A DNA stretch of 42,498 bases. It comes from a virus. Taxonomy: Duplodnaviria > Caudoviricetes. Position 1 is the first letter of the stretch; every line of letters starts with the position of its first letter. Position numbers and translations under genes: made by a program. The notes under the pieces are model-generated. The model saw only the letters and a program-made list of their open reading frames with translations, was not told where the DNA came from and did not search any database. The stretch is taken from the IMG/VR virus record IMGVR_UViG_3300022670_000173, positions 1 to 42,498 of that record; one strand, written 5' to 3'. Shown in pieces: positions 12,199 to 30,852 of this stretch.

Positions 12199-14379
12199 AT
12201 GCCTTTAACCATACAAGATTTTGATGACGCGCTTGAAGATTTAAAGACAATCGGTGACGTTACAAATCTAACTCAAGACACAAAGCTTTCCAGCAGGCTA
12301 GGCGCTTTAATATCCACACTATTTAAAGCAATTGGTGATATTGGGTTTTTACCTAATGCTATTCCATGGACGCCTACAACGCTATTTGATAACCCTCAGC
12401 AATTAGTAACAGAGGGCAGCGATACCTATCGACTAAAAGAAGCTCACACTTCAGGCGCTACTTTTGCCGAAGATGCCAGCAAATGGACTCTATTTACTTC
12501 AGACCCTTCAATTCCAACAGTGACAGATTTGGATAATGCTGTTGATGGGTTTTTTAGATTTGATGGGACGGCTGCAAATGTTCCGCCTATTGGTGTTACG
12601 GGTGGCGGCTATCAAATAACTTCATCGCAAGGAAATATTAAAACTCAATATGTCCAAAGTGCTGGGTCATTTTTGTATGTTAGAAGCTTTAACGGTGTTG
12701 TGTGGACGGTTTGGGTTAGGCAAGTAGATGAAAATGATTTGAAGTTTTTAACAATATCGGGAAATAATTTTGATACTTTTGACGCTCAAGGTAATTTTGC
12801 TATTCAATTGCCAACCTCAACAACATTGCCCCCTAATTTTGAAACTAATATAGCAGTTCAAGACCATGCGACAATTGAGGTAATTAGAGGGCAGACAGTT
12901 ACCGAGGCTTCGGGGGTGGTAGCAAAAAGAAGCCTAACAATTCAGCGATTGCATGGTATTGATACTCTAGGTGAGAAAACAACATGGAGTAGATACCAAG
13001 ATGAAACCGATGTCTCGCCATCATTTGGCGATTGGATTCAACCTAGTGGTGGCGGTAGTGGTGATGCTGTCATTATTACAGATTTAGATAATGCGCCTGA
13101 TGGATTTATTAAATGGGGCAATACCATTGCAAACGCACCAGCAGGAGCGGCTCATACTGGTTCGGGTTATCAAACAACAGCATTAACGGCGGGTGGCTCC
13201 AATTGGTCTCGATCTCAAGAAATAACAGTTGCCAAAGTTAGATACACAAGAACTGAAGACGAAGCTGTCGGGTGGCTGGAATGGCATAGAAGCGCCTATG
13301 TCGGAATTTATGGTATAGGATTCAGCGCCCAACAAACCACAAACATTGATGATATTGATGCTTCAAGCGGGGCTTTTTGGGTTGATGAAACCGTGGTTTC
13401 TGGTACTTATCCACCTGATGCCGTAGGTGACATAAGAATATTATTAGAACACGTACAAGGTTCAATACTTGATATTAACGGACTTAAAGATGATAAGTCC
13501 ATGACAACGCAAACGCTGACTAGCGGGGTTAATGCTAACGATATTCGACAATATAAACGCTATAGAAATGAAACCCAAGTAAGCCCGTCATGGTCTGATT
13601 GGCATGAAGGAATAGACCGTGGTGATTTTGGGTATGCTGGAGCAGCACCAGAAGCACCTAATTTTGGGGATGCTGACGACATTGATACTACGGGTTCTTA
13701 TTTCGCCTCTCAAAATTGCCCGACCGCGCACCAGTATTTAATTAGAGCAGTTAATAAAACCGTTACCGCTGGCAATACTTCAAAACATCAAATAGCAAGT
13801 AGGGCTGATGGTTTTGATTTTAAATTATTCCATCGTGGATATGATACAAATGGTAATTTTTGGAATGCGTGGGTAGATTTAACTGAAACAGGCGGTGGCG
13901 GTGGATTTACTCCGGCTATCGGTTATATGTCAAAAGACAATCTAACACTTAAATTGATGCCCACAATAACCGCTACGGTATTTCAGAAAATAGAAGATAG
14001 TGTAAGCGCCACTGTTTACGATGATTCAACAGGGTCAACTGGCGTTACTGTTGATTTGATAAACTCAACATTGGAAATCACAGCCGCCGGAACTTATAAT
14101 TTAAAAATTGATGTTGAAATTTCAATTGATGCGCCTTTGTCGGATATTACTGTAAGTATTGCTAAATTTACAGGAGTAGAACCAGCTATACCCGTAGCTC
14201 TAGCCTCAAGATTAGTTAGATCAACAACAGCGGATAATTCAAATCAGCGTTATCATGTTGAAGTTTCAGGAACAGAGGTTTTAGCTATCGGTGATAAATT
14301 AATACCAATTGTGACCAGTAACGCAACAACAAACCCATCAATAAAATCAACTTCATTTTCAGCCATAAGGATTGCATAA
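12199..14379 (+). CDS. Tail fibre with repeated knob-like domains
   Basis: 726 aa; SRLG N-terminal anchor, repeated DLDN..G.. and W..W modules, Gly linkers, beta-sandwich C-terminus. Confidence 0.85.
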   Translation: MPLTIQDFDDALEDLKTIGDVTNLTQDTKLSSRLGALISTLFKAIGDIGFLPNAIPWTPTTLFDNPQQLVTEGSDTYRLKEAHTSGATFAEDASKWTLFTSDPSIPTVTDLDNAVDGFFRFDGTAANVPPIGVTGGGYQITSSQGNIKTQYVQSAGSFLYVRSFNGVVWTVWVRQVDENDLKFLTISGNNFDTFDAQGNFAIQLPTSTTLPPNFETNIAVQDHATIEVIRGQTVTEASGVVAKRSLTIQRLHGIDTLGEKTTWSRYQDETDVSPSFGDWIQPSGGGSGDAVIITDLDNAPDGFIKWGNTIANAPAGAAHTGSGYQTTALTAGGSNWSRSQEITVAKVRYTRTEDEAVGWLEWHRSAYVGIYGIGFSAQQTTNIDDIDASSGAFWVDETVVSGTYPPDAVGDIRILLEHVQGSILDINGLKDDKSMTTQTLTSGVNANDIRQYKRYRNETQVSPSWSDWHEGIDRGDFGYAGAAPEAPNFGDADDIDTTGSYFASQNCPTAHQYLIRAVNKTVTAGNTSKHQIASRADGFDFKLFHRGYDTNGNFWNAWVDLTETGGGGGFTPAIGYMSKDNLTLKLMPTITATVFQKIEDSVSATVYDDSTGSTGVTVDLINSTLEITAAGTYNLKIDVEISIDAPLSDITVSIAKFTGVEPAIPVALASRLVRSTTADNSNQRYHVEVSGTEVLAIGDKLIPIVTSNATTNPSIKSTSFSAIRIA

Positions 14380-14744
14380 TGGGTATTTTACAAGAAGCAA
14401 AAGATAATAGAATTCGAGGTATTCGTGGCGAAATGTTGCGCGTCATTCATGCTGGATTTGATATTGGTGATAAACACTATAATTGCACAAATGACGATGT
14501 TAATTATTATACTAGCTCTCTTGTTGTGCTTCAGGCTGGCATTGTCCCCACTGTACCTGTTGCTCGCTTGTTTGGTGGGGAGTGGTCGGACTCTGAACAT
14601 AATGAAGAAGACTTAAAATCAATAGCCCTAGCTGCTACTGTACTTGTGTTTGCGGCGCGCTTAAAGCGCCAAAGCATAGTTGACCTAATAAACACTAAAA
14701 CAACTGTAAAAGCCGCTTATGGCGTAAAATGGGATTCAGTATGA
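14379..14744 (+). CDS. Tail fibre assembly/chaperone (DUF4376-like)
   Basis: 121 aa directly after fibre; ends in ..VKW like DUF4376 proteins. Confidence 0.6.
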   Translation: MGILQEAKDNRIRGIRGEMLRVIHAGFDIGDKHYNCTNDDVNYYTSSLVVLQAGIVPTVPVARLFGGEWSDSEHNEEDLKSIALAATVLVFAARLKRQSIVDLINTKTTVKAAYGVKWDSV

Positions 14745-15160
14745 GTAAATTTGTATTTGGCAAAAATTCTTTAAAGAATCGTGAAGGCGTTCACCCTGAT
14801 TTAATTAGGGTTGATGACTTGGCAATAACATTAACGCTTGTTGATTTTGGGCATGGTGAATATTCAGGATTAAGAACCGCTGAAGATCAAAACCACCTTC
14901 ACAAAAAAGGCGTTTCACCCAATTGCGATGGCTTCAAAGTAAAATCATTGCATCAATCAGGACGGGCATTAGATTTTCATGCTCACGTTGAGGGGCGCGG
15001 TTCTTGGAAAGAAGACCATCTAACAATGGTTGCTTGCGCCTATTTTCAAGCGGCATCAATACTAGGAATTAAAATAAAATGGGGCGGATTGTGGAAAGGT
15101 GGTAAAACACGTCATGGTATTCAATATGGGTGGGATTGCCCGCACATTCAGTTAGCCTAA
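14741..15160 (+). CDS. Endolysin, M15 family L-Ala-D-Glu peptidase (start ATG 14741 preferred)
   Basis: EGVHPDL, GLRT..Q, SLHQSGRALD, WGGLW, WDCPHIQL zinc-peptidase motifs. Confidence 0.9.
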   Translation: MSKFVFGKNSLKNREGVHPDLIRVDDLAITLTLVDFGHGEYSGLRTAEDQNHLHKKGVSPNCDGFKVKSLHQSGRALDFHAHVEGRGSWKEDHLTMVACAYFQAASILGIKIKWGGLWKGGKTRHGIQYGWDCPHIQLA

Positions 15161-15162
15161 AC

Positions 15163-15259
15163 GAAAAAGCCCCGTTACTAAACCAGAAAGTAACGGGGCT
15201 AAAACAACCACAGCAAACAACCTAACTAAGATTAAAACCTTCGGAGAGGAAAAAACCTT
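15163..15259 (-). ncRNA. Predicted ~96-nt small RNA, antisense to early-gene leaders
   Basis: Bounded by a leftward promoter (15266-15293) and a leftward intrinsic terminator (15164-15200); no start codon in it; segments complementary to leaders at 15362, 28113 and 32661 and to AACCRGAG. Confidence 0.55.
15164..15200 (-). terminator. Intrinsic terminator oriented for the minus strand
   Basis: Perfect 12-bp stem AGCCCCGTTACT (15168-79) / AGTAACGGGGCT (15189-200), 9-nt loop; A5 on the left side (U-tract on minus strand) and no T-tract on the right. Confidence 0.8.
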
Positions 15260-15265
15260 AAATTC

Positions 15266-15293
15266 ATAATAACAAAAACACCCACCCTGTAAA
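15266..15293 (-). promoter_or_regulatory. Leftward sigma70-type promoter with extended -10
   Basis: Minus strand reads TTTACA-N16-TATTAT with TGn before the -10. Confidence 0.6.
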
Positions 15294-15312
15294 ATCATTT
15301 ATCCCTCATTTA

Positions 15313-15360
15313 AGAATAATTTGACACTTTCATTGCATTAATTCATAATTCGGTTATTAT
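15313..15360 (+). promoter_or_regulatory. Early promoter P1 (conserved family)
   Basis: AGAATAAT-TTGACA-N6-TTGCAT-N16-TATTAT; also contains TTGACA-N17-CATAAT. Confidence 0.8.
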
Positions 15361-15390
15361 TACCAGAGCAAACAAACCGGAGTAAATAAA

Positions 15391-15609
15391 ATGCGCGTAC
15401 CAGTAGAAACAATCATTGAAATAAACAAGATTGATTACCCAGCAATACTAACTTATTCAGAAGATGAAAATAATTTTGAATTACATTCTTTGCATTTATT
15501 AGATAAAAACGAAACTGATATGACTTTTCTATTGTCAGATTTAGATGATCAGGCGGAATATTTAGACGTTGCCGAACGACACAGAGCGGAGTCTATCGAA
15601 TGCAAATAG
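15391..15609 (+). CDS. Small acidic hypothetical protein
   Basis: ORF with AACCGGAG SD leader, first gene after P1. Confidence 0.75.
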   Translation: MRVPVETIIEINKIDYPAILTYSEDENNFELHSLHLLDKNETDMTFLLSDLDDQAEYLDVAERHRAESIECK

Positions 15610-15866
15610 AAATTAAGGGGCGAACATATAGCCCCATTTTTAAAAAGGGATGCCGAAAAGTAATCGGCTTTATTGATGATAAAAACGAGGAAATACTAAG
15701 AAGCTATAATGAATACATATTATACAGCGCGGATAATGGCGCAAGATTTGCATTGTATTTAGATATTGAACCTTGTTATTTTTTACTAAGCGAAATCTTA
15801 AAAGAGATTGAGACTGATTTTATAGGGTTCATTAAAAACAAATCAATGACGGTGGAAAGGTTATGA
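15600..15866 (+). CDS. Hypothetical protein
   Basis: ORF with GGAG SD, overlapping neighbours. Confidence 0.65.
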   Translation: MQIEIKGRTYSPIFKKGCRKVIGFIDDKNEEILRSYNEYILYSADNGARFALYLDIEPCYFLLSEILKEIETDFIGFIKNKSMTVERL

Positions 15867-16312
15867 AAAAAGAAGTATTTTTCATTCGTGACAAAGAGAC
15901 AGCGCGGCATCTAATGGGCAACGCTTTTAATTCAGCCTTGAGGCGCTTAGATTCTGGAGCGGTCGTTGTGACATTATCTTGCGAAACGCGCACCATTGAA
16001 CAGAATGACAAATTGTGGGCAATGCTAACGGACTTGTCTAAAAAGATTACCTACTATGGCAAAAAGAGAACAACGGCGGCATGGAAGGACATTGTGACCG
16101 TTGCTTGGCAAGCTGAAACAGTCGAGTTAGTGCCAAGCTTTGACAATACAAAATTAATAGCGGTCGGGCTATCAACCAGTGATTTAGGCGTTAAGGCATT
16201 CGCTGAAGTAGTTGAAGTTATTTATATGATGGGCGCTGACTTTGGCATTGAATGGTCTAAAAAATCAAATACGATTTTCAAAGAGTATAAACTTTATGAT
16301 CAAGTTACTTAG
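15863..16312 (+). CDS. ninB: NinB/Orf family recombination protein
   Basis: RTIEQNDKLWAML.DLS, W K, GLSTSDL..K.F motifs. Confidence 0.88.
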   Translation: MKKEVFFIRDKETARHLMGNAFNSALRRLDSGAVVVTLSCETRTIEQNDKLWAMLTDLSKKITYYGKKRTTAAWKDIVTVAWQAETVELVPSFDNTKLIAVGLSTSDLGVKAFAEVVEVIYMMGADFGIEWSKKSNTIFKEYKLYDQVT

Positions 16313-16421
16313 CCATATTATAATTAACGTTCGGCTTTTATTGCTTAAAAGAAAACTTAATAAAAAACTTAAAGAAAAAAACCAGAGGATTGAAGATGGG
16401 AACATTGACAAAAAGGCTTGA
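16296..16421 (+). CDS. Small basic hypothetical protein (41 aa, not in ORF track)
   Basis: ATG..TGA ORF filling the gap between ninB and next gene. Confidence 0.4.
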   Translation: MIKLLSHIIINVRLLLLKRKLNKKLKEKNQRIEDGNIDKKA

Positions 16422-16710
16422 AGAACTTGAAGTACAGCGCGATGAATTAACCGTGTGGATTGACGAATTAAAACAAGAAATAGCTGAAAATGCTTGCCCC
16501 TTTGTGGTGGGAATGGAAGTTGCTGTTTGTGGTTATGCCAGTAATGGAAAGCCAATGTTGATTGAAGAAATTTGTGGTATGCCACGACCAACAAAGCACA
16601 GCACTAAAAGCTTATGGAGGGTTCGAGGCTCTTTAATTAAAAAGAATGGTGAGCCGAGCAAGTTAACAGCAACATTTACTGACGCACAATATAAAAAGGC
16701 GATGAAATGA
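16396..16710 (+). CDS. Hypothetical protein
   Basis: AACCAGAGGA leader before ATG 16396; N-terminal coiled coil. Confidence 0.7.
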   Translation: MGTLTKRLEELEVQRDELTVWIDELKQEIAENACPFVVGMEVAVCGYASNGKPMLIEEICGMPRPTKHSTKSLWRVRGSLIKKNGEPSKLTATFTDAQYKKAMK

Positions 16711-17225
16711 AAAAATTAGCTAAATTAGTTGTTGAATGGGCTGAAGCTAAAGGTCTTAATAAAGCCAACCCTAACGCGCAATTTAAAAAAGTATATGAAG
16801 AAATCGGTGAAACATCGGCGGCTTTACTTCTTAATGATATGCCGGAAATCATTGACGGAATCGGTGACGTTTACGTGACCTTGATTGTATTATCAAATCA
16901 GCTAAACATTCCTTTTGATTTTAATGACAAAGATGAAATCGAACATATTTCTGAAAATAGAGCATTTATTGACCTTGCTTTTTGCGTTGGCAACATCGGG
17001 CATCATATTGATAGTGAATCAAACTATAGTATGGGCTTTGTAAGCCATTACATTTACCTTGCTTGTGTTGCGTTGTCGCACCTAGCTAAACGCCGTGGGC
17101 TGACCGCTGAGCAGTGCCTACAAACTGCTTATGATGTTATTAGCAAGCGAAAAGGTAAAATGGTTGGCGATGTTTTTATTAAAGAAAAACCGCAAGCGGA
17201 TTGGAGCAAAAAAAGTGGCAAATAG
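16707..17225 (+). CDS. MazG-like nucleotide pyrophosphohydrolase
   Basis: W.E.KGL, QFKKVYEEIGE, DGIGDV, AYDVISKRKGKMV motifs. Confidence 0.85.
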   Translation: MKKLAKLVVEWAEAKGLNKANPNAQFKKVYEEIGETSAALLLNDMPEIIDGIGDVYVTLIVLSNQLNIPFDFNDKDEIEHISENRAFIDLAFCVGNIGHHIDSESNYSMGFVSHYIYLACVALSHLAKRRGLTAEQCLQTAYDVISKRKGKMVGDVFIKEKPQADWSKKSGK

Positions 17226-17556
17226 AATAGCCGCAAGGGTTGACGCAAATCACGGAGAAATCAAAAAGGCATTTATCAGCCTTGGCTGTTCTGTTTCGGA
17301 TACGTCCGGCGCGGGCAAAGGCTTTCCTGATATTGTTGTGGGCTACAAGGGGATAACCGTTTTAGTTGAAATAAAGGACGGTGAAAAAACACCTAGCCAA
17401 AGAAAACTTACAAAAGATCAAATAATATTTCACGGCAATTTTACGGGCGCAATTGCTGTTGTAAAAGACGTTGACGATGTTTTGAAGATTTATAACAAGC
17501 TAATAATGAATGAAATTTCCTTTCGTCATTACTGGAAATTAGACAACGGTTATTAA
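17215..17556 (+). CDS. VRR-NUC / PD-(D/E)xK endonuclease (likely GTG start at 17215)
   Basis: ARVDANH, GFPDIVVG, LVEIKDG, LTKDQ motifs; GGAG SD at 17203. Confidence 0.85.
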   Translation: MANRIAARVDANHGEIKKAFISLGCSVSDTSGAGKGFPDIVVGYKGITVLVEIKDGEKTPSQRKLTKDQIIFHGNFTGAIAVVKDVDDVLKIYNKLIMNEISFRHYWKLDNGY

Positions 17557-17573
17557 CTGCTATATTTATTAAC

Positions 17574-17605
17574 AAGGTCATAGGTTAAACTATGACCTTT
17601 TTTTT
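17574..17605 (+). terminator. Intrinsic terminator
   Basis: AAGGTCATAG-GTTAAA-CTATGACCTT followed by a T run. Confidence 0.9.
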
Positions 17606-17627
17606 ATGGATGAAAGAAAAGGGAGTT

Positions 17628-17636
17628 TGTTATAAT
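17628..17636 (+). promoter_or_regulatory. Extended -10 promoter for moron
   Basis: TGTTATAAT 33 nt upstream of ATG 17669. Confidence 0.6.
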
Positions 17637-17668
17637 TAGAAACAGTTTGATAAAAAGAGCGGGAAAAA

Positions 17669-18202
17669 ATGACTGATGTTTCGGGCATGATGGATAAATT
17701 AAAGCCAAAATACATTATTGCTATTGTTTTATGCGGTAGTTTGATAAATATATTGCCAAGCATTTATACAGAGTACAATAATAAAAGCTCAACTAAGCCA
17801 ATAGGCGCGGATGATACTATTAGGGACGTTGCTAAAACCTTTACCTATTACAACCGCTCTATCATAGACGGCTTTAAAAACCTTCTTGATTCAAATATGA
17901 CGCTAAGCAACAGAGAATATTCTACTTTTGTTTACGACCTATTAGAGCGGGGTTGGAGTCAAGGTTTTGCAGAATTAAACAGACATCCATTTTGTATGAA
18001 AAACGTTGGTGAATGGGTAGAACAAAATATAAATTCAGATGATACTTTAAAAGAAGAATCGTTAAGTGTTGTAAGCAATGGGCAAATAACAACCAGTGAG
18101 AAAATTATAATGCTAGAATTATTAATACTTTCATATTCCCAGAAAACCGGAAAATCATTAAAAACCCATTTAAAGAGTGTTGAGAAATGCAAAAAATCCT
18201 AA
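17669..18202 (+). CDS. Membrane-anchored hypothetical protein
   Basis: N-terminal hydrophobic segment YIIAIVLCGSLINILPSIY followed by a soluble helical domain. Confidence 0.7.
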   Translation: MTDVSGMMDKLKPKYIIAIVLCGSLINILPSIYTEYNNKSSTKPIGADDTIRDVAKTFTYYNRSIIDGFKNLLDSNMTLSNREYSTFVYDLLERGWSQGFAELNRHPFCMKNVGEWVEQNINSDDTLKEESLSVVSNGQITTSEKIIMLELLILSYSQKTGKSLKTHLKSVEKCKKS

Positions 18203-18900
18203 TTACTACATTGATGTGTATTAGTGCTTTTGCTCAGAGTGAATCACTTGTTTTACACACCGTAGCACAGCCCCCATATATTTATGAACCATACAGAGAG
18301 AATCAAGGCGCATTGATGGAGGCAACGAAACTAGCCTTTGAAGATGCCAAAATTGATTACACGGTTGTTTACCACACTGAATGGGATGAAGCATTTAACG
18401 AGCTAAACACGCGAAGCAATGCGGTTTATGTTGCCGATATAACGAACATAAACCGTGATGTAATGTATGGTTCTGTAAATACTGGGTTCATCGTTACAAA
18501 TGCCATTTATGCAAGAACAGACAGCTATTTTCATTATGACGGAATCGAAAGCCTAAAGGGTATGAAAATAGGTATTGTTAGCGACCGCCTAACAGGTGAC
18601 AAAGAATTTGATAAAAAATTCATGCTTAACAAATACGACTTCAGACAAAAAAACGATGTAGAACACCTTCTAATGTCGTTATATATGGGATGGGTTGACG
18701 TTGCCATATTACCGCAAGAACTCGCTGAACACTCTTTACGAATGAGGTTTGGGAAAACACAATACAAGATTGAACAACGAGGACAACTAAACAAAGAATA
18801 CCTTCGGCTTATTTTCAATAACAAAATCTCAAAAGAAACAATTAGAAAAATTCAAAAATCTTATGATGAAGTAAGAAAGGGAATTAGGATTTATTGGTAA
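18187..18900 (+). CDS. Periplasmic solute-binding protein (family 3 / type II PBP fold)
   Basis: Signal peptide ending SAFA; PPY motif, W..A, I.SLKGMKIG, L..L..GWVDVAI pattern. Confidence 0.8.
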   Translation: MQKILITTLMCISAFAQSESLVLHTVAQPPYIYEPYRENQGALMEATKLAFEDAKIDYTVVYHTEWDEAFNELNTRSNAVYVADITNINRDVMYGSVNTGFIVTNAIYARTDSYFHYDGIESLKGMKIGIVSDRLTGDKEFDKKFMLNKYDFRQKNDVEHLLMSLYMGWVDVAILPQELAEHSLRMRFGKTQYKIEQRGQLNKEYLRLIFNNKISKETIRKIQKSYDEVRKGIRIYW

Positions 18901-18944
18901 TAATTTTACAAATAGATTGCAATAAATCAAAAAAGGGCTATTAT
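18901..18944 (+). promoter_or_regulatory. Early promoter P2 (conserved family)
   Basis: TAAT-TTTACA-N6-TTGCAA-N16-TATTAT. Confidence 0.75.
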
Positions 18945-18994
18945 TCCAATTAATCAAGGGAAACAAACCAGTTTATCCCGTTGGAGAAATAACC

Positions 18995-19210
18995 ATGACA
19001 ACCACACAGATTTTTAATTTCCTCGTTAACCGCCTCAAGTTCATTGATGAAATGAGAGTTTCAGAAAAACTAAAGTTAATCCTCGTTCGTAAATTCTTAT
19101 TAAAAAACGGCGCGACAAATTGCCCGTCATTTGAATCCTTTAAAATCTCCGGCGTTTCAATTTCAGCTTCATTATTAAATAATGAAATCACCATTTCAGT
19201 TAGGGCTTAA
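18995..19210 (+). CDS. Hypothetical protein
   Basis: GGAGAAATAACCATG leader. Confidence 0.7.
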   Translation: MTTTQIFNFLVNRLKFIDEMRVSEKLKLILVRKFLLKNGATNCPSFESFKISGVSISASLLNNEITISVRA

Positions 19211-19212
19211 TC

Positions 19213-19440
19213 ATGCTTACAAAATTAAGAACATTATTTAGAAAATCAAAATTAACAATGACGCAAGCGGCAATAGAATGCTGCATGACAACGCCGGAAT
19301 TTACCCTTTTAATGCAAGGCAGAACTTCAGGCATCCCAAAAACAGCTATTAGAATCTTAGAAATAAATATAAAGCTGAATGAATCAATACAAGATAATGA
19401 GCAATTATTAATTGAATTACAGGAAGAAAGAAGCTTATGA
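19213..19440 (+). CDS. Putative XRE-type helix-turn-helix protein
   Basis: LRTLFRKSKLTMTQAA....T......MQGRT..IP pattern. Confidence 0.55.
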   Translation: MLTKLRTLFRKSKLTMTQAAIECCMTTPEFTLLMQGRTSGIPKTAIRILEINIKLNESIQDNEQLLIELQEERSL

Positions 19441-19760
19441 GCCATAAAAAGAAAAGCTTTCCTGAAAGCATGTTTGCAACTTTCTATAAAAATCTGAGCG
19501 ATAAATTACCGCCAAAGCATTTTAATTATAATTGTTCGTCAATGTCACCACTTGAATTGAATATAGCAATGTCGAAAGCGTTAGCTGACTCAATACACGA
19601 AGACAACATAAGAGCAGCTAGAGAGGCTAGAGGCTTTTGTGAGCCATTACAGGGCAATAGAAAGTCCGTAATGTTCAATGATGGCAGATATGAACTAACA
19701 ACAAATTTAACTCAAGATTCACTAATCAGATCACTAAAGGTTTTATATGCAACTTTCTAA
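19437..19760 (+). CDS. Hypothetical protein
   Basis: ATGA-coupled ORF. Confidence 0.6.
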   Translation: MSHKKKSFPESMFATFYKNLSDKLPPKHFNYNCSSMSPLELNIAMSKALADSIHEDNIRAAREARGFCEPLQGNRKSVMFNDGRYELTTNLTQDSLIRSLKVLYATF

Positions 19761-20175
19761 AGGCAAAAAAGAATTCACTATGACTTTAACTCAAGGTTAT
19801 TTTGAATCTAGTAAATTTAGCGTTTATTCATATTCTTATTGCGAGCCATTACCACCTGTTTCTCTTATGGAAAACAAAATAGTAATACCTGATGATACTT
19901 ATGAAATAAGACAAGCAATTGATATTAAATTTACAATTGATTTAACGGAAAGATTTATTTCAATAAATATTTTATCAAATGATAATTCTATGGCTGACTT
20001 AGAAAGACCATTTGGATTTATAAACTTTAGAAAAGAAATAGAGCAAGTTGATATTGATATGTTTATATATTCAATGTGCGACGTTATAGGAGGCAAAGAA
20101 TATAGAAACAATTGTCTTAATTATATGTCGCAATTTATAACACGAAGACCATTACCACCACAGGGCTTTGAATAA
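19747..20175 (+). CDS. Hypothetical protein
   Basis: ORF in operon, very AT-rich. Confidence 0.6.
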   Translation: MQLSKGKKEFTMTLTQGYFESSKFSVYSYSYCEPLPPVSLMENKIVIPDDTYEIRQAIDIKFTIDLTERFISINILSNDNSMADLERPFGFINFRKEIEQVDIDMFIYSMCDVIGGKEYRNNCLNYMSQFITRRPLPPQGFE

Positions 20176-20420
20176 TGAAACAATGGATTAAAAGGGTTTT
20201 CCCTTGCTTGCTTTCTGAAGTTGAAACAGAGAATATTCTAAAAGAGAAAATGAAAACAAAGGACGCAGAATTCAAAAGAACAGTTAGTGAATTCAAAGCA
20301 CAAGTAACAAAGCAAGAGGCGCAAATTGAAAGCCTTGGCGTGATGTTATTTGAGCGTAGAAAATATGTAAAAGAATTAAAATTATCTATCGAAAAAATAG
20401 GAGATAAGGGAGGTAATTAA
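20175..20420 (+). CDS. Hypothetical coiled-coil protein
   Basis: TAATG-coupled ORF. Confidence 0.6.
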   Translation: MKQWIKRVFPCLLSEVETENILKEKMKTKDAEFKRTVSEFKAQVTKQEAQIESLGVMLFERRKYVKELKLSIEKIGDKGGN

Positions 20421-20421
20421 C

Positions 20422-20799
20422 ATGGTTATTAAAAAAAACCATAAAGAAGTTTATGCTTTTCAAAAGTGGTGGGATGAAGTAGGCAGCTCTATAACGCCAT
20501 TAATTAATAATGATATGGCTGAACATTCTATGATTATCGGCTTAATGGCGTTTAAAGAGGCTTTGAAGACGAAATGGCATGAAGCCACTGAAAGACCCGA
20601 CTTTGATTACCATAACTTTCAGAACCGCGTTTTGGTTGAATCTAGCTATGGTGTAAGGTGCGCTTGGTTCTCAACGATTGACCAATGCTTTCAAGATTGC
20701 GAAACAGATACGGACGAGGACACAATGGGCATCAATGGAAAACGCTTTGTTGTCTACCGATGGCAGTATTTACCGGAGGGAAAAGAAGAAAGTGTTTAG
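20422..20799 (+). CDS. Hypothetical protein with DUF551-like C-terminus
   Basis: WH...ERP...VLV...V.RWQYLPE motif; strong GGAGG SD. Confidence 0.65.
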   Translation: MVIKKNHKEVYAFQKWWDEVGSSITPLINNDMAEHSMIIGLMAFKEALKTKWHEATERPDFDYHNFQNRVLVESSYGVRCAWFSTIDQCFQDCETDTDEDTMGINGKRFVVYRWQYLPEGKEESV

Positions 20800-20819
20800 C
20801 CCGTTAATTCGGGCTTTTT
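20798..20819 (+). terminator. Intrinsic terminator
   Basis: AGCCCG-TTAATT-CGGGCT-TTTT. Confidence 0.88.
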
Positions 20820-20840
20820 ATTGCCTGCTATAAATAAATG

Positions 20841-20888
20841 AGAATAGTTTTACAATTACCTTGCATGTAACGAAAATATCTCTATAAT
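20841..20888 (+). promoter_or_regulatory. Early promoter P3 (conserved family)
   Basis: AGAATAGT-TTTACA-N6-TTGCAT-N16-TATAAT. Confidence 0.82.
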
Positions 20889-20926
20889 TCATTTTATCAG
20901 CTCAACAACTAAACGAGATAACGATT

Positions 20927-21289
20927 ATGAAAACAATTAAACTTTTTGATAAATCCGGCAATAAATCAATAGGCGTTTTTCACGACCATCAAGGATTTTT
21001 AGCTTTAACTTTCGCTGAATCAAAAACTTTCAAAACTGAAAAAGGCGCGTTTAATTGGTTGGCAAAGCGTGGTTATGAAGTTAAAGAAGCACCAGTTGTG
21101 CAAGTTCTGGCAAAGACAGAAACCAGCCTTCTAGGTTATCACTATCAAGCTGAAAAATATTCTCATGGGTTTGTGGTCGCTGAATACAGAAACGGCGAAT
21201 TAATGGAATACAAATCGGAGTTTATGAAGTCAAAAGATTACATTATGAAAATATTTAATCGTGTTCGATGTAACTTAAAGGAGATTTAA
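20927..21289 (+). CDS. Hypothetical protein with DUF1391-like N-terminus
   Basis: GVF...GFLALTFAESKTFKTEKGAFNWL resembles DUF1391 prophage proteins. Confidence 0.65.
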   Translation: MKTIKLFDKSGNKSIGVFHDHQGFLALTFAESKTFKTEKGAFNWLAKRGYEVKEAPVVQVLAKTETSLLGYHYQAEKYSHGFVVAEYRNGELMEYKSEFMKSKDYIMKIFNRVRCNLKEI

Positions 21290-21292
21290 ACC

Positions 21293-21547
21293 ATGAAAAA
21301 AATACTATTAGTTTTGGCAATCGTATCCTTAACAGCGTGTAATGATGGCGTTAAACGCTCAGAATGCGGCTATACAAGCGATGATTACTTAAGATACAGA
21401 ATTATAGAAACGGGCGAATATTGGGTTATAAGCACAGCTAACGGCGCTAAGCGAAAAGTAAATCCTGTTTCATGCTCGGTTTACTACCAAGACATAACAT
21501 TAATTGATATTTCATTTATTGACGTTACATTTAACAGCATACGATAA
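21293..21547 (+). CDS. Small lipoprotein
   Basis: MKKILLVLAIVSLTA-C lipobox signal peptide. Confidence 0.8.
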   Translation: MKKILLVLAIVSLTACNDGVKRSECGYTSDDYLRYRIIETGEYWVISTANGAKRKVNPVSCSVYYQDITLIDISFIDVTFNSIR

Positions 21548-21561
21548 CCGGAGTAATAACC

Positions 21562-21699
21562 ATGAATGATAAATTTTATTTAGGCAGATCAAAAAAAAGC
21601 GGTGAAGATTTAGCGGGTATTATTATCGGCATACCGTTAACGCTTTTTATGGGCTGGGCGGTCTGTAAGTTTATATTAATGATGTTTACCGGAGAGTAA
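21562..21699 (+). CDS. Small membrane protein (45 aa, not in ORF track)
   Basis: Starts in repeat motif; MNDKFYLGRSKKSGEDLAGIIIGIPLTLFMGWAVCKFILMMFTGE. Confidence 0.7.
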   Translation: MNDKFYLGRSKKSGEDLAGIIIGIPLTLFMGWAVCKFILMMFTGE

Positions 21700-21703
21700 A
21701 AAG

Positions 21704-21916
21704 ATGGCTAATAAAATTATTGAAAAAATGAAGCGTTGTAAAAAATGCAAAAAGCATACTGTACACAAATGCAATTCTGACTCAATGGGTATACTGGCAC
21801 TAATGATAAACATAATACTTGTTGTCATTACGGGCGGTTTTTGGCTTATACCATTGTTTTTGTATTTAATATTAACCATTCCATTTTTTAGTAAATGGAC
21901 TTGTAGCGAGCATTAA
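21704..21916 (+). CDS. Zinc-ribbon membrane protein (LITAF-like layout)
   Basis: CKKC, hydrophobic hairpin, then WTCSEH. Confidence 0.65.
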   Translation: MANKIIEKMKRCKKCKKHTVHKCNSDSMGILALMINIILVVITGGFWLIPLFLYLILTIPFFSKWTCSEH

Positions 21917-21930
21917 CCGGAGAAATAACC

Positions 21931-22107
21931 ATGAGTAAGAAAAAAGTTAAATATTATTATGTATACGATGGGCGCGGAATAGAAGACGGACAAGTATTTG
22001 CCGTTATCAATGCAAAGAGTGACCAGCAAGCCCGCAAAGAATGGGTGGAAGAATGGGAAGATTATGACACCACTCTTTTTGATAATAATGGAAACCAGAT
22101 ATTTTAA
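21931..22107 (+). CDS. Hypothetical protein (58 aa, not in ORF track)
   Basis: Begins and ends exactly in two repeat motifs. Confidence 0.75.
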   Translation: MSKKKVKYYYVYDGRGIEDGQVFAVINAKSDQQARKEWVEEWEDYDTTLFDNNGNQIF

Positions 22108-22121
22108 CCGGAGAAACGACC

Positions 22122-22400
22122 ATGAATAACCAGAAACGAATTATTAAAGTGACTAACTGTAATGAATGCCCATTTTGCGGTCAGTGCGCGGCATGGCAAA
22201 AGCTAACCAAAAAGCAGATCGTAACCTTAAACCTTGGTGTTGGAATACCCGCTGACTTCATGCTTGCTGAATGTCATTTAGAAGCCGAAGAAGATACCGA
22301 TAAAATGAAAAAGCTTATTGATAAGCATATTACAGGCGTTTCTTGTAATGACTGTGATGAATTTCTTGAACATTGTGAATGCGAGGGCAACCAGCTATGA
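22122..22400 (+). CDS. Cys-rich hypothetical protein
   Basis: CNECPFC and CNDC-x6-CEC; repeat leader. Confidence 0.75.
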   Translation: MNNQKRIIKVTNCNECPFCGQCAAWQKLTKKQIVTLNLGVGIPADFMLAECHLEAEEDTDKMKKLIDKHITGVSCNDCDEFLEHCECEGNQL

Positions 22401-22666
22401 AACTAACTAAAAAAGAACAGGCATGGCTTGACCGTCTTGAAAAATTACTATCAGCCGCGCCGAAAAGCTTAGACAAAAAAGTTAGTTCTTATACTGTCGG
22501 TGATGCTGATATTGTCCTATATGATAGGGCTAAATACGAAAAACACTTTGAAGAAAATCCAGTGCCATACACTGATAACCGTGATCAATGCAGCCTTGTA
22601 TCTGATTCAGATAGTGAGATTGTAACTTTTGATTTCCCTTTTTCAATTGAATCAACAGCGGGGTAA
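22397..22666 (+). CDS. Hypothetical protein (ATG 22397 preferred)
   Basis: ATGA overlap, GAGGG SD. Confidence 0.7.
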   Translation: MKLTKKEQAWLDRLEKLLSAAPKSLDKKVSSYTVGDADIVLYDRAKYEKHFEENPVPYTDNRDQCSLVSDSDSEIVTFDFPFSIESTAG

Positions 22667-22672
22667 ATAACC

Positions 22673-23071
22673 ATGACTATTAAAATGAAGCTAACTAAAA
22701 GTGAATTCACGCAATTAGTGAGCGGTATTGTAAGCGGCTTATCTATTGATAAAAGCGACCAGTGGCATGATGTAAGGGATTATGAAAACCTTGATTGTGA
22801 AGATATTTTAAGCCTTGTAGATGAATACTTTGAAGGTGTTGATTGCGATGATAACGACCGCCTAACAGAAGAAAACAAAAACCTTCTTGATAATCGCGCC
22901 GACTTAGTTGAATTTATTAAATTAACATTAATTCGTGGCATTGAAAAAGATGAAGAATTAAAAAATCTTAAAGAAATAAACGAACAGCTATCAAAAGAAT
23001 TAGCTGAATCAGTGAATTTTATAAATGATATGGGCGATAAAATGGGAAATTTAGCAAGTAGGGGTAAATAG
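22673..23071 (+). CDS. Acidic coiled-coil hypothetical protein
   Basis: GGGGTAAATAACCATG leader. Confidence 0.7.
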   Translation: MTIKMKLTKSEFTQLVSGIVSGLSIDKSDQWHDVRDYENLDCEDILSLVDEYFEGVDCDDNDRLTEENKNLLDNRADLVEFIKLTLIRGIEKDEELKNLKEINEQLSKELAESVNFINDMGDKMGNLASRGK

Positions 23072-23073
23072 CC

Positions 23074-23274
23074 ATGTTTTATAAGCTTTGTTCTTCTTTG
23101 CGGACTGCTTATTTAAGCAATCCATTATTTAAAAGTGGTTGTAAATTATCATTTGAAAATCGTGATACTTATATAGAAATGACTGAAAAAGCAATTGTTT
23201 TGCAGATTGAAGAAAATGAACGATTACAAAAACAATTAATAAAATACGCCTCGAAATACGGCGCTATTGAATAA
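23074..23274 (+). CDS. Hypothetical protein
   Basis: Ends in repeat motif. Confidence 0.65.
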   Translation: MFYKLCSSLRTAYLSNPLFKSGCKLSFENRDTYIEMTEKAIVLQIEENERLQKQLIKYASKYGAIE

Positions 23275-23288
23275 CCGGAGAAATAAAA

Positions 23289-23468
23289 ATGGGTAGCCCT
23301 TACATAAAGAAAACAATAGACCCTTCAGAACCTCATTATTTTGTAATGAAGCCTGAAGAAATTGGTGATAAGCCAAATAGGGTTATCCCTTCGCTTACAG
23401 TATGCAAAATATGTGGCTCATTTCGAGAAACTAAAATTTGTATAAGACATTATATTTCGGAGGTATAG
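23289..23468 (+). CDS. Hypothetical protein (59 aa, CxxC; not in ORF track)
   Basis: Starts in repeat motif at 23272. Confidence 0.65.
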   Translation: MGSPYIKKTIDPSEPHYFVMKPEEIGDKPNRVIPSLTVCKICGSFRETKICIRHYISEV

Positions 23469-23470
23469 CA

Positions 23471-23617
23471 ATGCTATTTAGAAAAACAATGAAGACAAAG
23501 AAAAAGCAAATATTCACAAGCAAAGATAATGATTATAAATCTAAGTCTCTTTATCGCTTAACAACGTATTGGTTTTTAATTATACCGATATATTCTTATG
23601 AAGAATTTATTGATTAG
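23471..23617 (+). CDS. Small basic hypothetical protein (48 aa, not in ORF track)
   Basis: GGAGG SD; stop TAG is the start of repeat copy 23615. Confidence 0.7.
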   Translation: MLFRKTMKTKKKQIFTSKDNDYKSKSLYRLTTYWFLIIPIYSYEEFID

Positions 23618-23631
23618 CCGGAGTAATAACC

Positions 23632-23727
23632 ATGACAATATTAAAAATTTATAGCTACGGTGGTCGCAGGGTTTGTAATAGCTGCGGAGAGTATCGTGAT
23701 CAGTGTGATTGTATTGATGATTTATAA
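23632..23727 (+). CDS. 31-aa Cys-rich microprotein (not in ORF track)
   Basis: Starts in repeat; MTILKIYSYGGRRVCNSCGEYRDQCDCIDDL. Confidence 0.65.
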   Translation: MTILKIYSYGGRRVCNSCGEYRDQCDCIDDL

Positions 23728-23757
23728 GCTAATAAAATATAATTAAAGGGGTATGGC

Positions 23758-23994
23758 ATGAAAAGATTAGTTTCAACAGATGGCAATGGTTCAAATTTAA
23801 TTGACGTTAAGGGGCTGGGGCAATACGTACCAATTAAAGTTTCTTATGATCAAGAAAAGAAAATAAACATTCTAAAAAATCGCGTTGCCGAATTAGAAAA
23901 AAACATTTGCATCTATGCGCGCGAAGAAATAGCAGAATTTCACTTTGAAAGTGATCAAGAGGCGTTAGACTTCTTTTCAAAATACGATAAATAA
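23758..23994 (+). CDS. Hypothetical protein
   Basis: AAGGGG SD; ends in repeat. Confidence 0.7.
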   Translation: MKRLVSTDGNGSNLIDVKGLGQYVPIKVSYDQEKKINILKNRVAELEKNICIYAREEIAEFHFESDQEALDFFSKYDK

Positions 23995-24008
23995 CCGGAG
24001 TAATAACC

Positions 24009-24251
24009 ATGAGCAAAGAAGATTTAACTCAAGAAAAAGTAAACGATTTATTTAAAGCAGTAAAATTAGAGTGGGATAATGCCGTTGCTGAAAGTGGCAG
24101 AACTGAGAAAATGTTTATCATTATGGATAGATCAGGGCTTGTAAGTAATTTTATGTTGAATTATAAGGAAGCAAAAGACCATATTGAAAGCCTTGGTTTA
24201 GAAGTCCCTTTTGAAATTGAAGGCTTAACAATCACATTTAATCAGGAGTAA
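24009..24251 (+). CDS. Hypothetical protein
   Basis: Starts in repeat. Confidence 0.75.
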   Translation: MSKEDLTQEKVNDLFKAVKLEWDNAVAESGRTEKMFIIMDRSGLVSNFMLNYKEAKDHIESLGLEVPFEIEGLTITFNQE

Positions 24252-24256
24252 TAACC

Positions 24257-24487
24257 ATGAAATTTATTAGAATTAATAGTTTTTTGATAAACCTTGATAA
24301 CGTAACCAGCATAAATATTTCTGATGATAACCTTATGATTTTTAGCTTTGAGAAAGATGATGAACTATATGTTGAATGCCCATCAAATCAGACAATGGAG
24401 GCAATGAGGGGTAATATTCTAAAGGCAACGGGATTGGATAAGCCAATATTACCACCACCGCCAACACCACCAAATAATAAGGCGTGA
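24257..24487 (+). CDS. Hypothetical protein with Pro-rich tail
   Basis: Starts in repeat; INLDNVTSI motif. Confidence 0.75.
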   Translation: MKFIRINSFLINLDNVTSINISDDNLMIFSFEKDDELYVECPSNQTMEAMRGNILKATGLDKPILPPPPTPPNNKA

Positions 24488-24675
24488 TTATGAAAAACAA
24501 AATATTAACTATAAATGCTGGTGATGTGGTTAAGATGAAGTTCGATTCAGGATTTAGCATGGTTGAATCTGTTGATTATGACCAAAAAACTTTCCTGATA
24601 GATGCAGGTGATGACTACAAGTACGAATATGATTTAGATGAAGTGCAAGAGGTTTACCGAAAAGATTTTAATTAA
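24484..24675 (+). CDS. Small acidic hypothetical protein (SH3-like beta pattern)
   Basis: INAGDVVKM..VESVD; last gene before terminator. Confidence 0.65.
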   Translation: MIMKNKILTINAGDVVKMKFDSGFSMVESVDYDQKTFLIDAGDDYKYEYDLDEVQEVYRKDFN

Positions 24676-24687
24676 GCATAAACAACT

Positions 24688-24709
24688 AGCCCTTTGATTA
24701 GGGCTTTTT
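24688..24709 (+). terminator. Intrinsic terminator
   Basis: AGCCCT-TTGATT-AGGGCT-TTTT. Confidence 0.85.
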
Positions 24710-24753
24710 CATGCCTGAAATTTAGTTTCAAGTTTGAAACTGCCATTAATAAA

Positions 24754-24803
24754 TTAAAATAATCATTGCTAATATATATACTTTCTATATAGTGAGTATA
24801 TAT
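24754..24803 (+). promoter_or_regulatory. Replication-operon promoter (family variant) with overlapping palindromic operator
   Basis: TTAAAA-N6-TTGCTA-N16-TATAGT; palindrome ATATATACT-TT-CTATATAG-TG-AGTATATAT (24774-24803). Confidence 0.65.
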
Positions 24804-24820
24804 CAACTGAGGATTACAAG

Positions 24821-24955
24821 ATGAAAAGATTAATTGATTTTAAAAGCCTGTTTGAAGAAATTAAAAAGTTTGCTGATGACCATTGTGAAGGAAATTTTTC
24901 ACTAGCAGTTAGAACGCTGATTAAGAAAGGTTTACGTTCACAGCCTGAGCATTAG
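24821..24955 (+). CDS. Ribbon-helix-helix-like regulator (44 aa, not in ORF track)
   Basis: GAGG SD; MKRLIDFKSLFEEIKKFADDHCEGNFSLAVRTLIKKGL fits strand-helix-G-x-x-S-helix pattern. Confidence 0.7.
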   Translation: MKRLIDFKSLFEEIKKFADDHCEGNFSLAVRTLIKKGLRSQPEH

Positions 24956-24968
24956 AAGGGGTTTAATC

Positions 24969-25856
24969 ATGCACTATTACCAATTCAATATAGGTGATTA
25001 CGCAAGCCATACAAGCAGGTTAACCCCGCTTGAAGACGTGGCATATAGAAGAATGTTAGACGTGTATTATTTGAGTGAACAGCCGTTGAACGGGTGTGCA
25101 ACAGACGTTGCTAGAGAGATTGGAATGACTGAATATCTTGATTCAGTTGAGTACATTTTAGCGAAGTTTTTTATCAAAGAAGAAAATTGTTTTTCACAAA
25201 AAAGAATTGATTCTGAAATCAAAAAATACAAATCTAATGCAAAAAATAAAAGTAAAGCTGGCAAGGCATCCGCGAAAGCTAGACGCAGCAAGGCTTTGGA
25301 GGGGTCAACACCTGTTGAACAGACGTTGAACACAAAGGCAACAACTGAGCAACTAAACATAAACCATAAACCATTAACCATTAACCAAGAAACAGTAAGT
25401 GATAGTAACTCTTGTTCGGAGAAGAAACCGAACGTGAAAAAGTCCAAATATAATTTTAATGATGATCAGATGAATTTTGCTAAGTATTTTCAGAAATGCT
25501 TGAAAGAAATTAATCCTAATCAAAAAGAACCGAATTACGAAGCATGGGCAAATGATGTTCGATTGTTAAACGAGGTTGATAAACGTGATGGACAATTGAT
25601 AAATTCAGTTTGGGAATGGGCAAGGAAGGATTCATTTTGGCAATCAAATCTTTTATCACCGTCAAAATTTAGAAAACAGTTTGACGCTTTGGTAATCAAA
25701 TTAAATCAAGTGAACGGAAAAAGCGAAAATAACAGCAATTCAACAATTGACGTACTGAAGGAAATTTATAATGAACAGCAATCAATTAGCTCTGAAGGTA
25801 ATGGTCAAATTATCGGCAATGTATCCACAGGGGGAATCACAATTCAAGGGCGATAA
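24969..25856 (+). CDS. Replication initiator (YdaU/DUF1376 N-terminus, O-like C-terminus)
   Basis: MHYYQFNIGDY...LTPLE..AYRRMLDVYY; C-terminal FWQSNLLSPSKFRKQFD. Confidence 0.85.
   Translation: MHYYQFNIGDYASHTSRLTPLEDVAYRRMLDVYYLSEQPLNGCATDVAREIGMTEYLDSVEYILAKFFIKEENCFSQKRIDSEIKKYKSNAKNKSKAGKASAKARRSKALEGSTPVEQTLNTKATTEQLNINHKPLTINQETVSDSNSCSEKKPNVKKSKYNFNDDQMNFAKYFQKCLKEINPNQKEPNYEAWANDVRLLNEVDKRDGQLINSVWEWARKDSFWQSNLLSPSKFRKQFDALVIKLNQVNGKSENNSNSTIDVLKEIYNEQQSISSEGNGQIIGNVSTGGITIQGR
25300..25395. repeat. Probable replication origin inside initiator gene
   Basis: (C/G)AAC units at 11-bp spacing (25306, 25317, 25328, 25339, 25350), then tandem 7-mers AAACCAT/TAACCAT (25361-25388). Confidence 0.65.
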
Positions 25857-26343
25857 AGAAAAAATCAAGGCGTACATGGAAGAAATAAAAAATGGCTTGG
25901 AATCAAAAGAATTATGCAATGAAGAATTTCTTGAAATTGGGTATAAAAATTTACTTGATATAACGGGCAATTTTTACCCTTCTGTACCAACGTTTATTCA
26001 TGCTTGCATGCCAGCGCCGCAAAATTGGGGCTTGCCAACGGCTCAAGATGCCTTTGATATGGCAGGAAAGCTGTCTAGCAGCCATTTAAAACATACATTG
26101 CCCCCATTGGTACAGATGGCGGCAAAAAGCCATTGGGGAGAGATTGGAGCGGGTAAGGGCTATAAAATATTTTGTGTTCGCTATGAGGATTTATTTTATA
26201 AATGGGTTCGCAATCAAATTAAACTTGAAATTATGCCTGTACCAATCGCAGCACCAGCAAAGCGCGATAAAACCGAAGCGGAAAAGCAACGTGGTAGCGA
26301 TTCAATAAAAGATTTAATTAACTTAGTCGGTGGTGATAAATGA
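25771..26343 (+). CDS. Replication protein P-like helicase loader
   Basis: FYPSVPTFIHAC....WGLPT..DAF motif; follows initiator. Confidence 0.7.
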   Translation: MNSNQLALKVMVKLSAMYPQGESQFKGDKEKIKAYMEEIKNGLESKELCNEEFLEIGYKNLLDITGNFYPSVPTFIHACMPAPQNWGLPTAQDAFDMAGKLSSSHLKHTLPPLVQMAAKSHWGEIGAGKGYKIFCVRYEDLFYKWVRNQIKLEIMPVPIAAPAKRDKTEAEKQRGSDSIKDLINLVGGDK

Positions 26344-26432
26344 GCAAAGAAAATAAAATGGCGGTCAAGAGTATTTTAATGACCGCAATATTATTTTTCG
26401 TATTAGGTTTTTTTGTTGGGGAGGTTGTATGA
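26340..26432 (+). CDS. 30-aa membrane peptide (not in ORF track)
   Basis: ATGA-coupled at both ends; hydrophobic core. Confidence 0.5.
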   Translation: MSKENKMAVKSILMTAILFFVLGFFVGEVV

Positions 26433-26692
26433 AAATATTAGTATTAGGCGGTTATTCAAGCCGACATATAATCGCGGCTTTGGCTGCTATGGGGCATAGC
26501 ATCCATGAAAAAAAACTTGGTGGAAATATTGAAGGATTTGGATTTAGCGGGGTAACTATTGATGACGATTTTGGAATGACACAATCAATATTTTCTCTTG
26601 ACGCGCTTGAAGAATTACAAAAAAAAGACGAACGAAAAAAGTGGAAATCAGCACAAAGAAAAAATCATTGGAAGGGTTCGAGATATGAGTAA
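26429..26692 (+). CDS. Hypothetical protein
   Basis: GGAGG SD. Confidence 0.65.
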   Translation: MKILVLGGYSSRHIIAALAAMGHSIHEKKLGGNIEGFGFSGVTIDDDFGMTQSIFSLDALEELQKKDERKKWKSAQRKNHWKGSRYE

Positions 26693-28016: not shown

Positions 28017-28021
28017 ATTTA

Positions 28022-28069
28022 AGAATAATTTAACAAAGTGCTTGCATTAAGTTAAATTATCTCTATTAT
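28022..28069 (+). promoter_or_regulatory. Early promoter P4 (conserved family)
   Basis: AGAATAAT-TTAACA-N6-TTGCAT-N16-TATTAT. Confidence 0.8.
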
Positions 28070-28126
28070 TCAATCTATCGAAACGGCAGCAATGACGCAG
28101 CCAGTAAAAACCAGAGTGAAAAAACC

Positions 28127-28840: not shown

Positions 28841-28889
28841 TTAAACGCGCCTTCGGGCGCACTAATAAAACAAACCAGAGTACAAAAAA

Positions 28890-29480: not shown

Positions 29481-29490
29481 GGGGTAATCT

Positions 29491-30501: not shown

Positions 30502-30548
30502 GAATAGTTTTACATTATGCTTGCATAATAGGAATAAATCTCTATTAT
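30501..30548 (+). promoter_or_regulatory. Early promoter P5 (conserved family)
   Basis: AGAATAGT-TTTACA-N6-TTGCAT-N16-TATTAT. Confidence 0.82.
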
Positions 30549-30576
30549 GTAGGCATACCAATCAGCAACCAGAGTA

Positions 30577-30852
30577 ATGAAAATGGCAAAGGCTAGCGTG
30601 TTATATTACGGGAACAATTCAGCAGGTAATAAGGTCGATGTTGCAAAAAGAGAATCTGACGGCAAGTGGTTCTCAAGATACGAAGAAAAAACAAATTACG
30701 GCTATAAAATGTGCAAGTGGTATGAATCAGAAGAACCAAGGAAAAGCGTTATTAAAAATGAATATTCGGGTGAAGTTTGTGGAAAGGCTTATTTTTGGGG
30801 ATTTAACAAGCTTTCTGAATTAAAAAATCCTTCAGTAAGATTGCCAAACTAA
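30577..30852 (+). CDS. Hypothetical protein (start may be ATG 30583)
   Basis: AACCAGAG leader after P5. Confidence 0.7.
   Translation: MKMAKASVLYYGNNSAGNKVDVAKRESDGKWFSRYEEKTNYGYKMCKWYESEEPRKSVIKNEYSGEVCGKAYFWGFNKLSELKNPSVRLPN

Follow-up and report, generated by a model that had tools for sequence, protein, structure and literature searches.

What would a leftward promoter and a leftward terminator transcribe in a phage genome whose accepted genes all lie on the plus strand? Both elements are predicted on the minus strand, directly behind the last late gene, within a window of 42,498 nucleotides, an entire virus record that carries direct terminal repeats. The marine sediment run from which it probably stems, assembled independently, gave a circular contig of 42,384 bases with no differences over 13500-17500. 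The head and tail genes extend from ~36200 through the record ends to the endolysin gene (14729-15160, plus strand), the product of which belongs to the M15 peptidase family according to profile scans. The NinB, MazG-like, O/P-like, DnaB, RecT and SSB genes are located within 15391-34940. The protein neighbours of the phage suggest a gammaproteobacterial host. One open reading frame (ORF) seems to cross the record ends (41717-42498 and 1-607), and its 421-aa homologue in genome G001 matches both pieces.

The initial annotation of this locus proposed a small antisense RNA that represses many early genes in a phage with no recognisable CI. Neither an integrase nor CI was found among the 58 ORFs scanned with PHROGs and the 49 scanned with Pfam, and these scans likewise returned no known family of RNA-binding regulators. 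The statement on CI thus stands for the scanned ORFs, but weak HTH-like ORFs exist, one at 19213 (E = 0.03) and one at 34239 (atlas scores of at most 0.81, a lead only), so that a protein-based regulation could still operate. Two other parts of the early arm were noted on the way. A 44-aa ORF (24821-24955, plus strand), located just 5' of a replication gene and without Pfam match at E ≤ 1, is presumably similar to a ribbon-helix-helix repressor, judging by eye, and AT-rich near-palindromes are present upstream of it. At 17574-18900, two unannotated genes without family match are set apart by a terminator and an upstream region of their own; the start of the second one resembles a signal peptide, and the pair is a possible moron cassette.

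The predicted leftward promoter (15266-15293, minus strand) is of the sigma70 type, as judged by consensus match only. As initially annotated, it consists of a -35 box TTTACA (15293-15288), a 16-nt spacer containing TG (15274-15273) and a -10 box TATTAT (15271-15266). It stands back-to-back with the early promoter P1 (15321-15360, plus strand), in which TTGACA..CATAAT and TTGCAT-N16-TATTAT match the consensus, 27 bases separating P1 from the leftward -35 box. Promoter-like sites as a class are not rare, with 37 found at ≥9/12 and 41.5 in shuffles. At ≥10/12, the leftward promoter is one of seven sites on the minus strand, and the sole extended-TG site among 27 on both strands. Its -10 box and spacer length are common to five rightward early promoters (15321, 18905, 20849, 28030 and 30509). 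The latter share an AT-rich box ending in a TTKACA-like sequence, followed by 6 bases, TTGCA, 17 bases and TATWAT, an arrangement of which the minus strand has no copy; the constant box upstream possibly represents an UP element or a site for a regulator. In the promoter at 30509, the region from the -35 to the -10 box is covered by a 17-bp inverted repeat without U tail (30516-30557).

The leftward unit ends in a hairpin with a stem of 12 bp (15168-15200), which is followed by a U tail at 15167-15158 on the minus strand only; the coordinates given initially, 15164-15200, include part of this tail. On the plus strand, the tail position is occupied by AAAACAACCA. The hairpin is thus an intrinsic terminator in the leftward direction only. 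A loose scan detected nine other terminator-like hairpins on the minus strand, all of them weaker. The description of the locus as the only leftward unit is therefore not strictly demonstrated.

The RNA predicted from these elements is non-coding, ~100 nt long and located at 15158-15259 on the minus strand, its 5' end being deduced from the promoter and its 3' end from the U tract. Its fold (z = -3.84) is matched by none of 200 shuffles, mostly because of the terminator hairpin. Three elements can be distinguished. The 9-nt loop of the hairpin, UUCUGGUUU (15180-15188), is predicted to be unpaired. The remainder upstream of the hairpin, here called the body (15201-15259), is weakly structured and 75% G/U, a value that rises to 90% in its 3' half. 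It includes, as first proposed, an anti-Shine-Dalgarno-like stretch, UCCUCUCCG (15242-15250), which is partly paired inside the predicted RNA. A search against Rfam, recommended in the initial annotation, assigned the RNA to no family at curated scores: there were no matches at the gathering score and ten weak ones at E ≤ 10, far below the cut-offs. A minus-strand ORF passing through the hairpin (~19 codons from a GUG), seen by eye, was rejected as unlikely.

The potential partner of the loop is a short tag, AACCRGAG (AACCAGAG or AACCGGAG), which occurs 13 times on the plus strand of the whole genome and never on the minus strand. Twelve copies, all on the plus strand and identified by motif scan, correspond to the gene starts listed initially. 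They are found at 15375-15382 (5' of 15391, where a partial second tag is present at 15362), 16380-16387 (5' of 16396), 21546-21553 (5' of 21562), 21915-21922 (5' of 21931), 22106-22113 (5' of 22122), 23273-23280 (5' of 23289), 23993-24000 (5' of 24009), 28109-28116 (5' of 28127), 28873-28880 (5' of 28890), 30567-30574 (5' of 30577), 31340-31347 (5' of 31356) and 32674, the last one being part of a C/A-rich leader (32661-32681) 5' of 32690. The thirteenth copy (27257), absent from the earlier list, is inside the DnaB gene. Under a third-order Markov model, AACCGGAG is the most over-represented 8-mer (8 seen versus 0.5 expected). Using the list of starts and the division into early and late arms by position that were drawn up in the present analysis, a tag is located within 30 nt of 12 of the 46 early-arm starts and of none of the 26 late-arm starts (Fisher p = 0.0025). 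This confirms the original observation that the motif marks early genes and no structural ones. Plain AACC is present in 19/46 early and 1/26 late leaders.

The GGAG/AGAG portion of the tag occupies the expected Shine-Dalgarno position. The AACC bases, beyond the part that pairs with 16S rRNA, are invariant in all 12 tags, by definition of the tag. Most of the tags are open, the predicted opening cost being at most 2.7 kcal/mol at 11 of the 12. A long form of the tag, AACCGGAGWAATAACCATG, was also found at 31 genome and 36 metagenome loci from varied bacteria and metagenomes, and at two viral loci; none of these genome, metagenome and viral loci has a tblastn match to the window. Its presence at 67 bacterial and metagenome loci indicates that the tag can be an ordinary bacterial ribosome-binding context.

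All 12 tags are complementary to eight of the nine bases of the loop, with a U opposite the A/G position, so that the claimed complementarity to both tag variants holds, and it exceeds three different nulls. Among the top 20 helix sites of the loop genome-wide, eight fall in early start regions, which represent 2.4% of the genome, and none in late ones. The early-start score is matched by 2/252 permutations of the loop letters with the real loop counted, i.e., by one other of 251; composition can therefore not account for the match. Random antisense 9-mers reach this score in 5 of 1500 cases. In a second score that considers all genes, the loop obtains 7 and the other 18 terminator-like loops of the genome at most 4. 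In 61 other phage sequences, which together provide 788 terminator-like loops, one loop reaches the same value; this null is generous, as the sequences are partly interrelated and mostly lack a strong tag. The single loop of equal score belongs to G002, in which an anti-SD hairpin (G002:C1, ~30450-30505, minus strand) is located just upstream of a gene on the same strand, directly 5' of its GGAGAGG site, as a possible pseudoknot or translational switch.

These values have to be read with some caution. The helix between loop and tag is worth just -8 to -9.4 kcal/mol. Most of the top 20 loop sites (12) lie outside start regions, the best two being in coding regions. With 19 loops in the genome, the chance of such a match is a few percent per genome, and the case was picked out of a very large scan, in which a p near 0.003 per loop will arise by chance. 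An extension of the loop pairing into the stem was rejected (stem rank 460/1024).

The longer matches reported for the body are present as described. Positions 15203-15218 match the leader at 32661-32676 (15/16) and positions 15207-15220 match 15362-15375 (13/14), the single difference being in both cases a true mismatch and not a G-U pair; the match of AGAG-GAAAAAACC (15245-15257) before the ATG at 28127 was recovered as well. The body contains four GGUU units (plus-strand AACC at 15206, 15219, 15236 and 15254), a number reached by 41 of 5000 shuffles. When co-folded without the hairpin against the 72 starts, its ten best partners are all early and seven of them are tagged, those of 28127 (-21.9 kcal/mol net) and 32690 (-20.2 kcal/mol net) ranking first and second. 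The mean is -15.5 kcal/mol for tagged starts versus -8.2 kcal/mol for late starts. Composition-matched shuffles of the body have a mean of -11.5 kcal/mol, so that much of the preference is due to composition; 10/297 of them reach the observed value and 8/297 the difference between tagged and late starts. Two other shuffle runs gave 20/400 and 5/300, the latter being of little weight, since four starts were misplaced by 1-12 bases and internal loops were not limited.

Other controls were less favourable to the body. Of 313 random antisense 59-mers, six are as discriminating, the five best ones coinciding with or adjoining early leaders. When 25 intergenic stretches were taken in antisense, three early leaders beat the body and the late stretch 2040-2098 equalled it. 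None of its top 20 sites in a genome-wide scan without accessibility, and one of the top 25 in a scan for perfect helices, fall in early start regions; the body as a strong genome-wide seed was thus discarded as unsupported. The pairing of the body shows a modest gain over shuffles in co-folding and fails in the genome-wide scans, and the support of the body for early-start targeting is weak and depends on the method.

Taken from sequence, the reading that we prefer is that of a trans-acting anti-leader RNA of ~100 nt, which would pair with the tagged ribosome sites and reduce the translation of some twelve early genes; we consider the arguments for and against it to be about evenly balanced. 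From the original idea of a multi-target repressor of early genes, it retains what the loop nulls and the preference of the body for tagged starts support, and it is held back by the lack of a homologue in the searches and by the weakness of the body. Since the promoter is of the host sigma70 type and has features of the early promoters, the RNA would be made early and not late. The early-to-late switch suggested initially is thereby doubtful, and a dampening feedback is favoured over a late switch, which would be less likely. Host RNA polymerase would use the leftward promoter from the moment of phage DNA entry. The loop would make the first contact, of 8-9 bp, over AACC and the GGAG/AGAG ribosome site, thus hiding that site, after which the G/U-rich body would pair with C/A-rich leader parts or with the spacer between AACC and AUG in a subset of the targets (28127, 32690, 15391, 24009, 21562 and 21931). 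If stable, the RNA would accumulate, and its negative feedback on the early arm would be delayed and dose-dependent, increasing over time or with the number of genomes. Late transcripts extending beyond the endolysin gene would be fully complementary to the RNA and could soak it up.

The most serious competitor of the anti-leader RNA, although an unlikely one in our estimation, is an ordinary junction between the late and early arms. Late transcription would be ended by a Rho site on the plus strand, the minus-strand terminator would stop stray leftward transcription originating in the divergent promoter region, the tags would simply be strong ribosome sites and the loop match would be due to chance. 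Rho sites are described as stretches of ~78 nt with more C than G (PMC6407284). An untranslated stretch of this kind does follow the endolysin stop on the plus strand, where 15201-15331 is C-rich and G-poor and represents a candidate Rho loading site; the 80-nt window of the genome with the largest excess of C over G is 15252-15331, and the window of the body is in the top 1.1%. The missing U tail on the plus strand fits this explanation, as do the failure of the body in the genome-wide scans and the generic ribosome-site context of the tag, C/A-rich leaders being common 5' of the 32690 homologues. A Rho site accounts for the composition of the body and leaves the loop match to chance, but this match goes beyond composition, with one other permutation of 251 scoring equally. 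The four GGUU units also exceed composition-matched shuffles (41/5000), no site of the genome at ≥10/12 other than the leftward promoter has an extended -10, and a reversed tag in a loop is likewise found in phage Adephagia.

A real RNA that acts in cis appears improbable. In that case, full-length pairing with late read-through transcripts would lead to their cleavage or block their passage into the early arm, and the likeness to leaders would be that of decayed gene starts. The position of the unit directly 3' of the endolysin stop (15160) and the hairpin lacking a U tail on the plus strand are compatible with this, the plus strand here resembles a series of leaders in tandem that lack an ATG, and an endolysin-associated antisense RNA is described for phage PAK_P4 (PMC12197685). 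However, the unit overlaps no coding sequence, and pairing in cis requires no particular loop, so that the match between loop and tag would go unexplained. Least probable is an active plus-strand copy, in which the AACC units of the late mRNA 3' tail (five within 15181-15257, one of them in the hairpin loop) would act as a decoy, capturing a protein or a small RNA of the host that binds early leaders. The hairpin does fold on both strands, the prophage RNA AgvB is described as a mimic of GcvB targets (PMC4104026) and there has been speculation about a protein that reads start tags (PMC11373665), but promoter and U tail are both on the minus strand, no known family of RNA-binding regulators is found among the scanned ORFs, and a U in the facing position would suit the A/G variation of the tag, though transitions are also the commonest change.

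Relatives of the locus were searched for at several levels. A blastn search of 14000-17000 against phage records gave no match. The stem pattern was found at 28 loci in viral contigs, every one with a different loop, and the pattern of the loop in a terminator at 25 loci, none of them related and one with a weak tape-measure match. In an unrelated phage of 40% GC, a hairpin with an AACCGGA core (L043, 5001-5140, plus strand) follows an A run just upstream of a consensus promoter. Scans of contigs for endolysin and NinB yielded no homologous locus. Homologues of gene 32690 were inspected at 62 of 80 loci, with at most two tag-plus-ATG sites each, and five whole records have 0-4 of these sites. 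G001 (L034-L036) shares its whole head-tail module with the window at ~30-70% identity; its replication arm is unrelated and oppositely oriented, with one tag in 43 kb and no tag set. By sequence comparison, this is a clear module swap. No relative sharing the early arm was detected when viral, genome and metagenome contigs were scanned by pattern and by protein.

If the anti-leader RNA is real, an RNA that reads the tag of a dozen early genes would provide regulon-wide translational control by RNA alone. Phage antisense RNAs such as sar, OOP, aQ, sas and STnc6030 (PMC12197685) as well as C4 (PMC5320573) are described as acting on one or few phage messages each. No report of a multi-target anti-leader phage RNA was found in the literature searched, most subscription journals being outside its scope. 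What would be new in scope is a loop-seeded antisense RNA whose self-regulon is marked by a shared tag.

Parts of this design are known from other RNAs. The P4 CI RNA is a phage RNA with a loop that pairs over the ribosome-binding site of a phage mRNA. CopA-type plasmid antisense RNAs are ~90-110 nt long and consist of a 5' tail and a terminator stem-loop, the loop of which starts the pairing. The predicted RNA has the same size and layout; CopA is cis-encoded and has one fully complementary target, and the CopA-type Rfam score obtained here, 19.8 bits versus a cut-off of 60, reflects just a hairpin. In the C4 RNA of P1/P7, loop b' is said to hide the ribosome site of a phage mRNA (PMC5320573), and the loop in our phage is similarly complementary to a phage ribosome-binding region, the likeness being one of complementarity only. 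C4 is described as having three stem-loops, an RNase P cut, two seed loops and a role in the immunity of temperate phages (PMC5320573). Unlike C4, the predicted RNA has one terminator hairpin, a 5' tail and about a dozen predicted targets, and the Rfam model of C4 gave no match at the gathering score and is absent from the ten weak matches at E ≤ 10. The R1 seed of GcvB, 88% G/U, faces translational enhancers rich in C/A, which in many mRNAs precede the ribosome site (PMC7769764). The 3' half of the body here would fit such a seed in composition, with a gain in pairing to leaders over shuffles that is modest. GcvB differs in being a conserved host RNA with bacterial targets, whereas the main seed here would be the loop of a terminator in an RNA without Rfam match.

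The closest parallel to the tag itself is provided by the cluster K mycobacteriophages, in which a 13-base start-associated sequence (SAS) precedes non-structural genes (PMC3203893, Pope et al.). It is described as an asymmetric tag made of a ribosome site plus extra conserved bases, and four K1 phages each have a single reversed copy that is not at a gene start (PMC3203893). Whether an RNA or a protein binds it was left open by Pope et al. (PMC3203893), and its role was still called unknown in 2024 (PMC11373665); the passages on the SAS in both papers give neither a function for the tag nor an RNA for the reversed copy. The tag of our phage resembles it in its single orientation (13 copies on the plus strand and 0 on the minus strand), in its location at the ribosome site of non-structural genes only and in having conserved bases beyond the part that pairs with 16S rRNA. 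The two are nonetheless unrelated in sequence and host group, the tag here having 8 nt and the cluster K sequence 13 nt. In its long form, the present tag is not rare outside the phage group, as its 67 bacterial and metagenome loci show.

In Adephagia, we found 16 forward copies of the SAS and one reverse copy, at 58682-58694. The latter is located between genes 92 and 93, in a gap of 432 bases free of genes, and falls in the loop predicted for a long hairpin (L224, 363-405; z = -2.16, 9/200 shuffles fold as well). Though a prediction for one phage, this shows that the layout of a reversed tag in a loop recurs in a cultured, unrelated phage. The Adephagia hairpin shares its strand with the genes on either side, whereas the loop in our phage is part of a terminator with its own leftward promoter. 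Start tags may tentatively be regarded as address labels that are read by a phage-made RNA, which would govern the entire early regulon through base pairing in place of a protein repressor, a design that would have arisen independently in the cluster K mycobacteriophages and elsewhere, although we lean slightly towards doubt on this generalization. If true, it would offer a possible answer to the role of the start-associated sequences, open since 2011. The phage described here, uncultured and without close relatives, would be one more independent instance and not the best test case; Adephagia is cultured and has published RNA-seq, so that the anti-leader idea is testable there.
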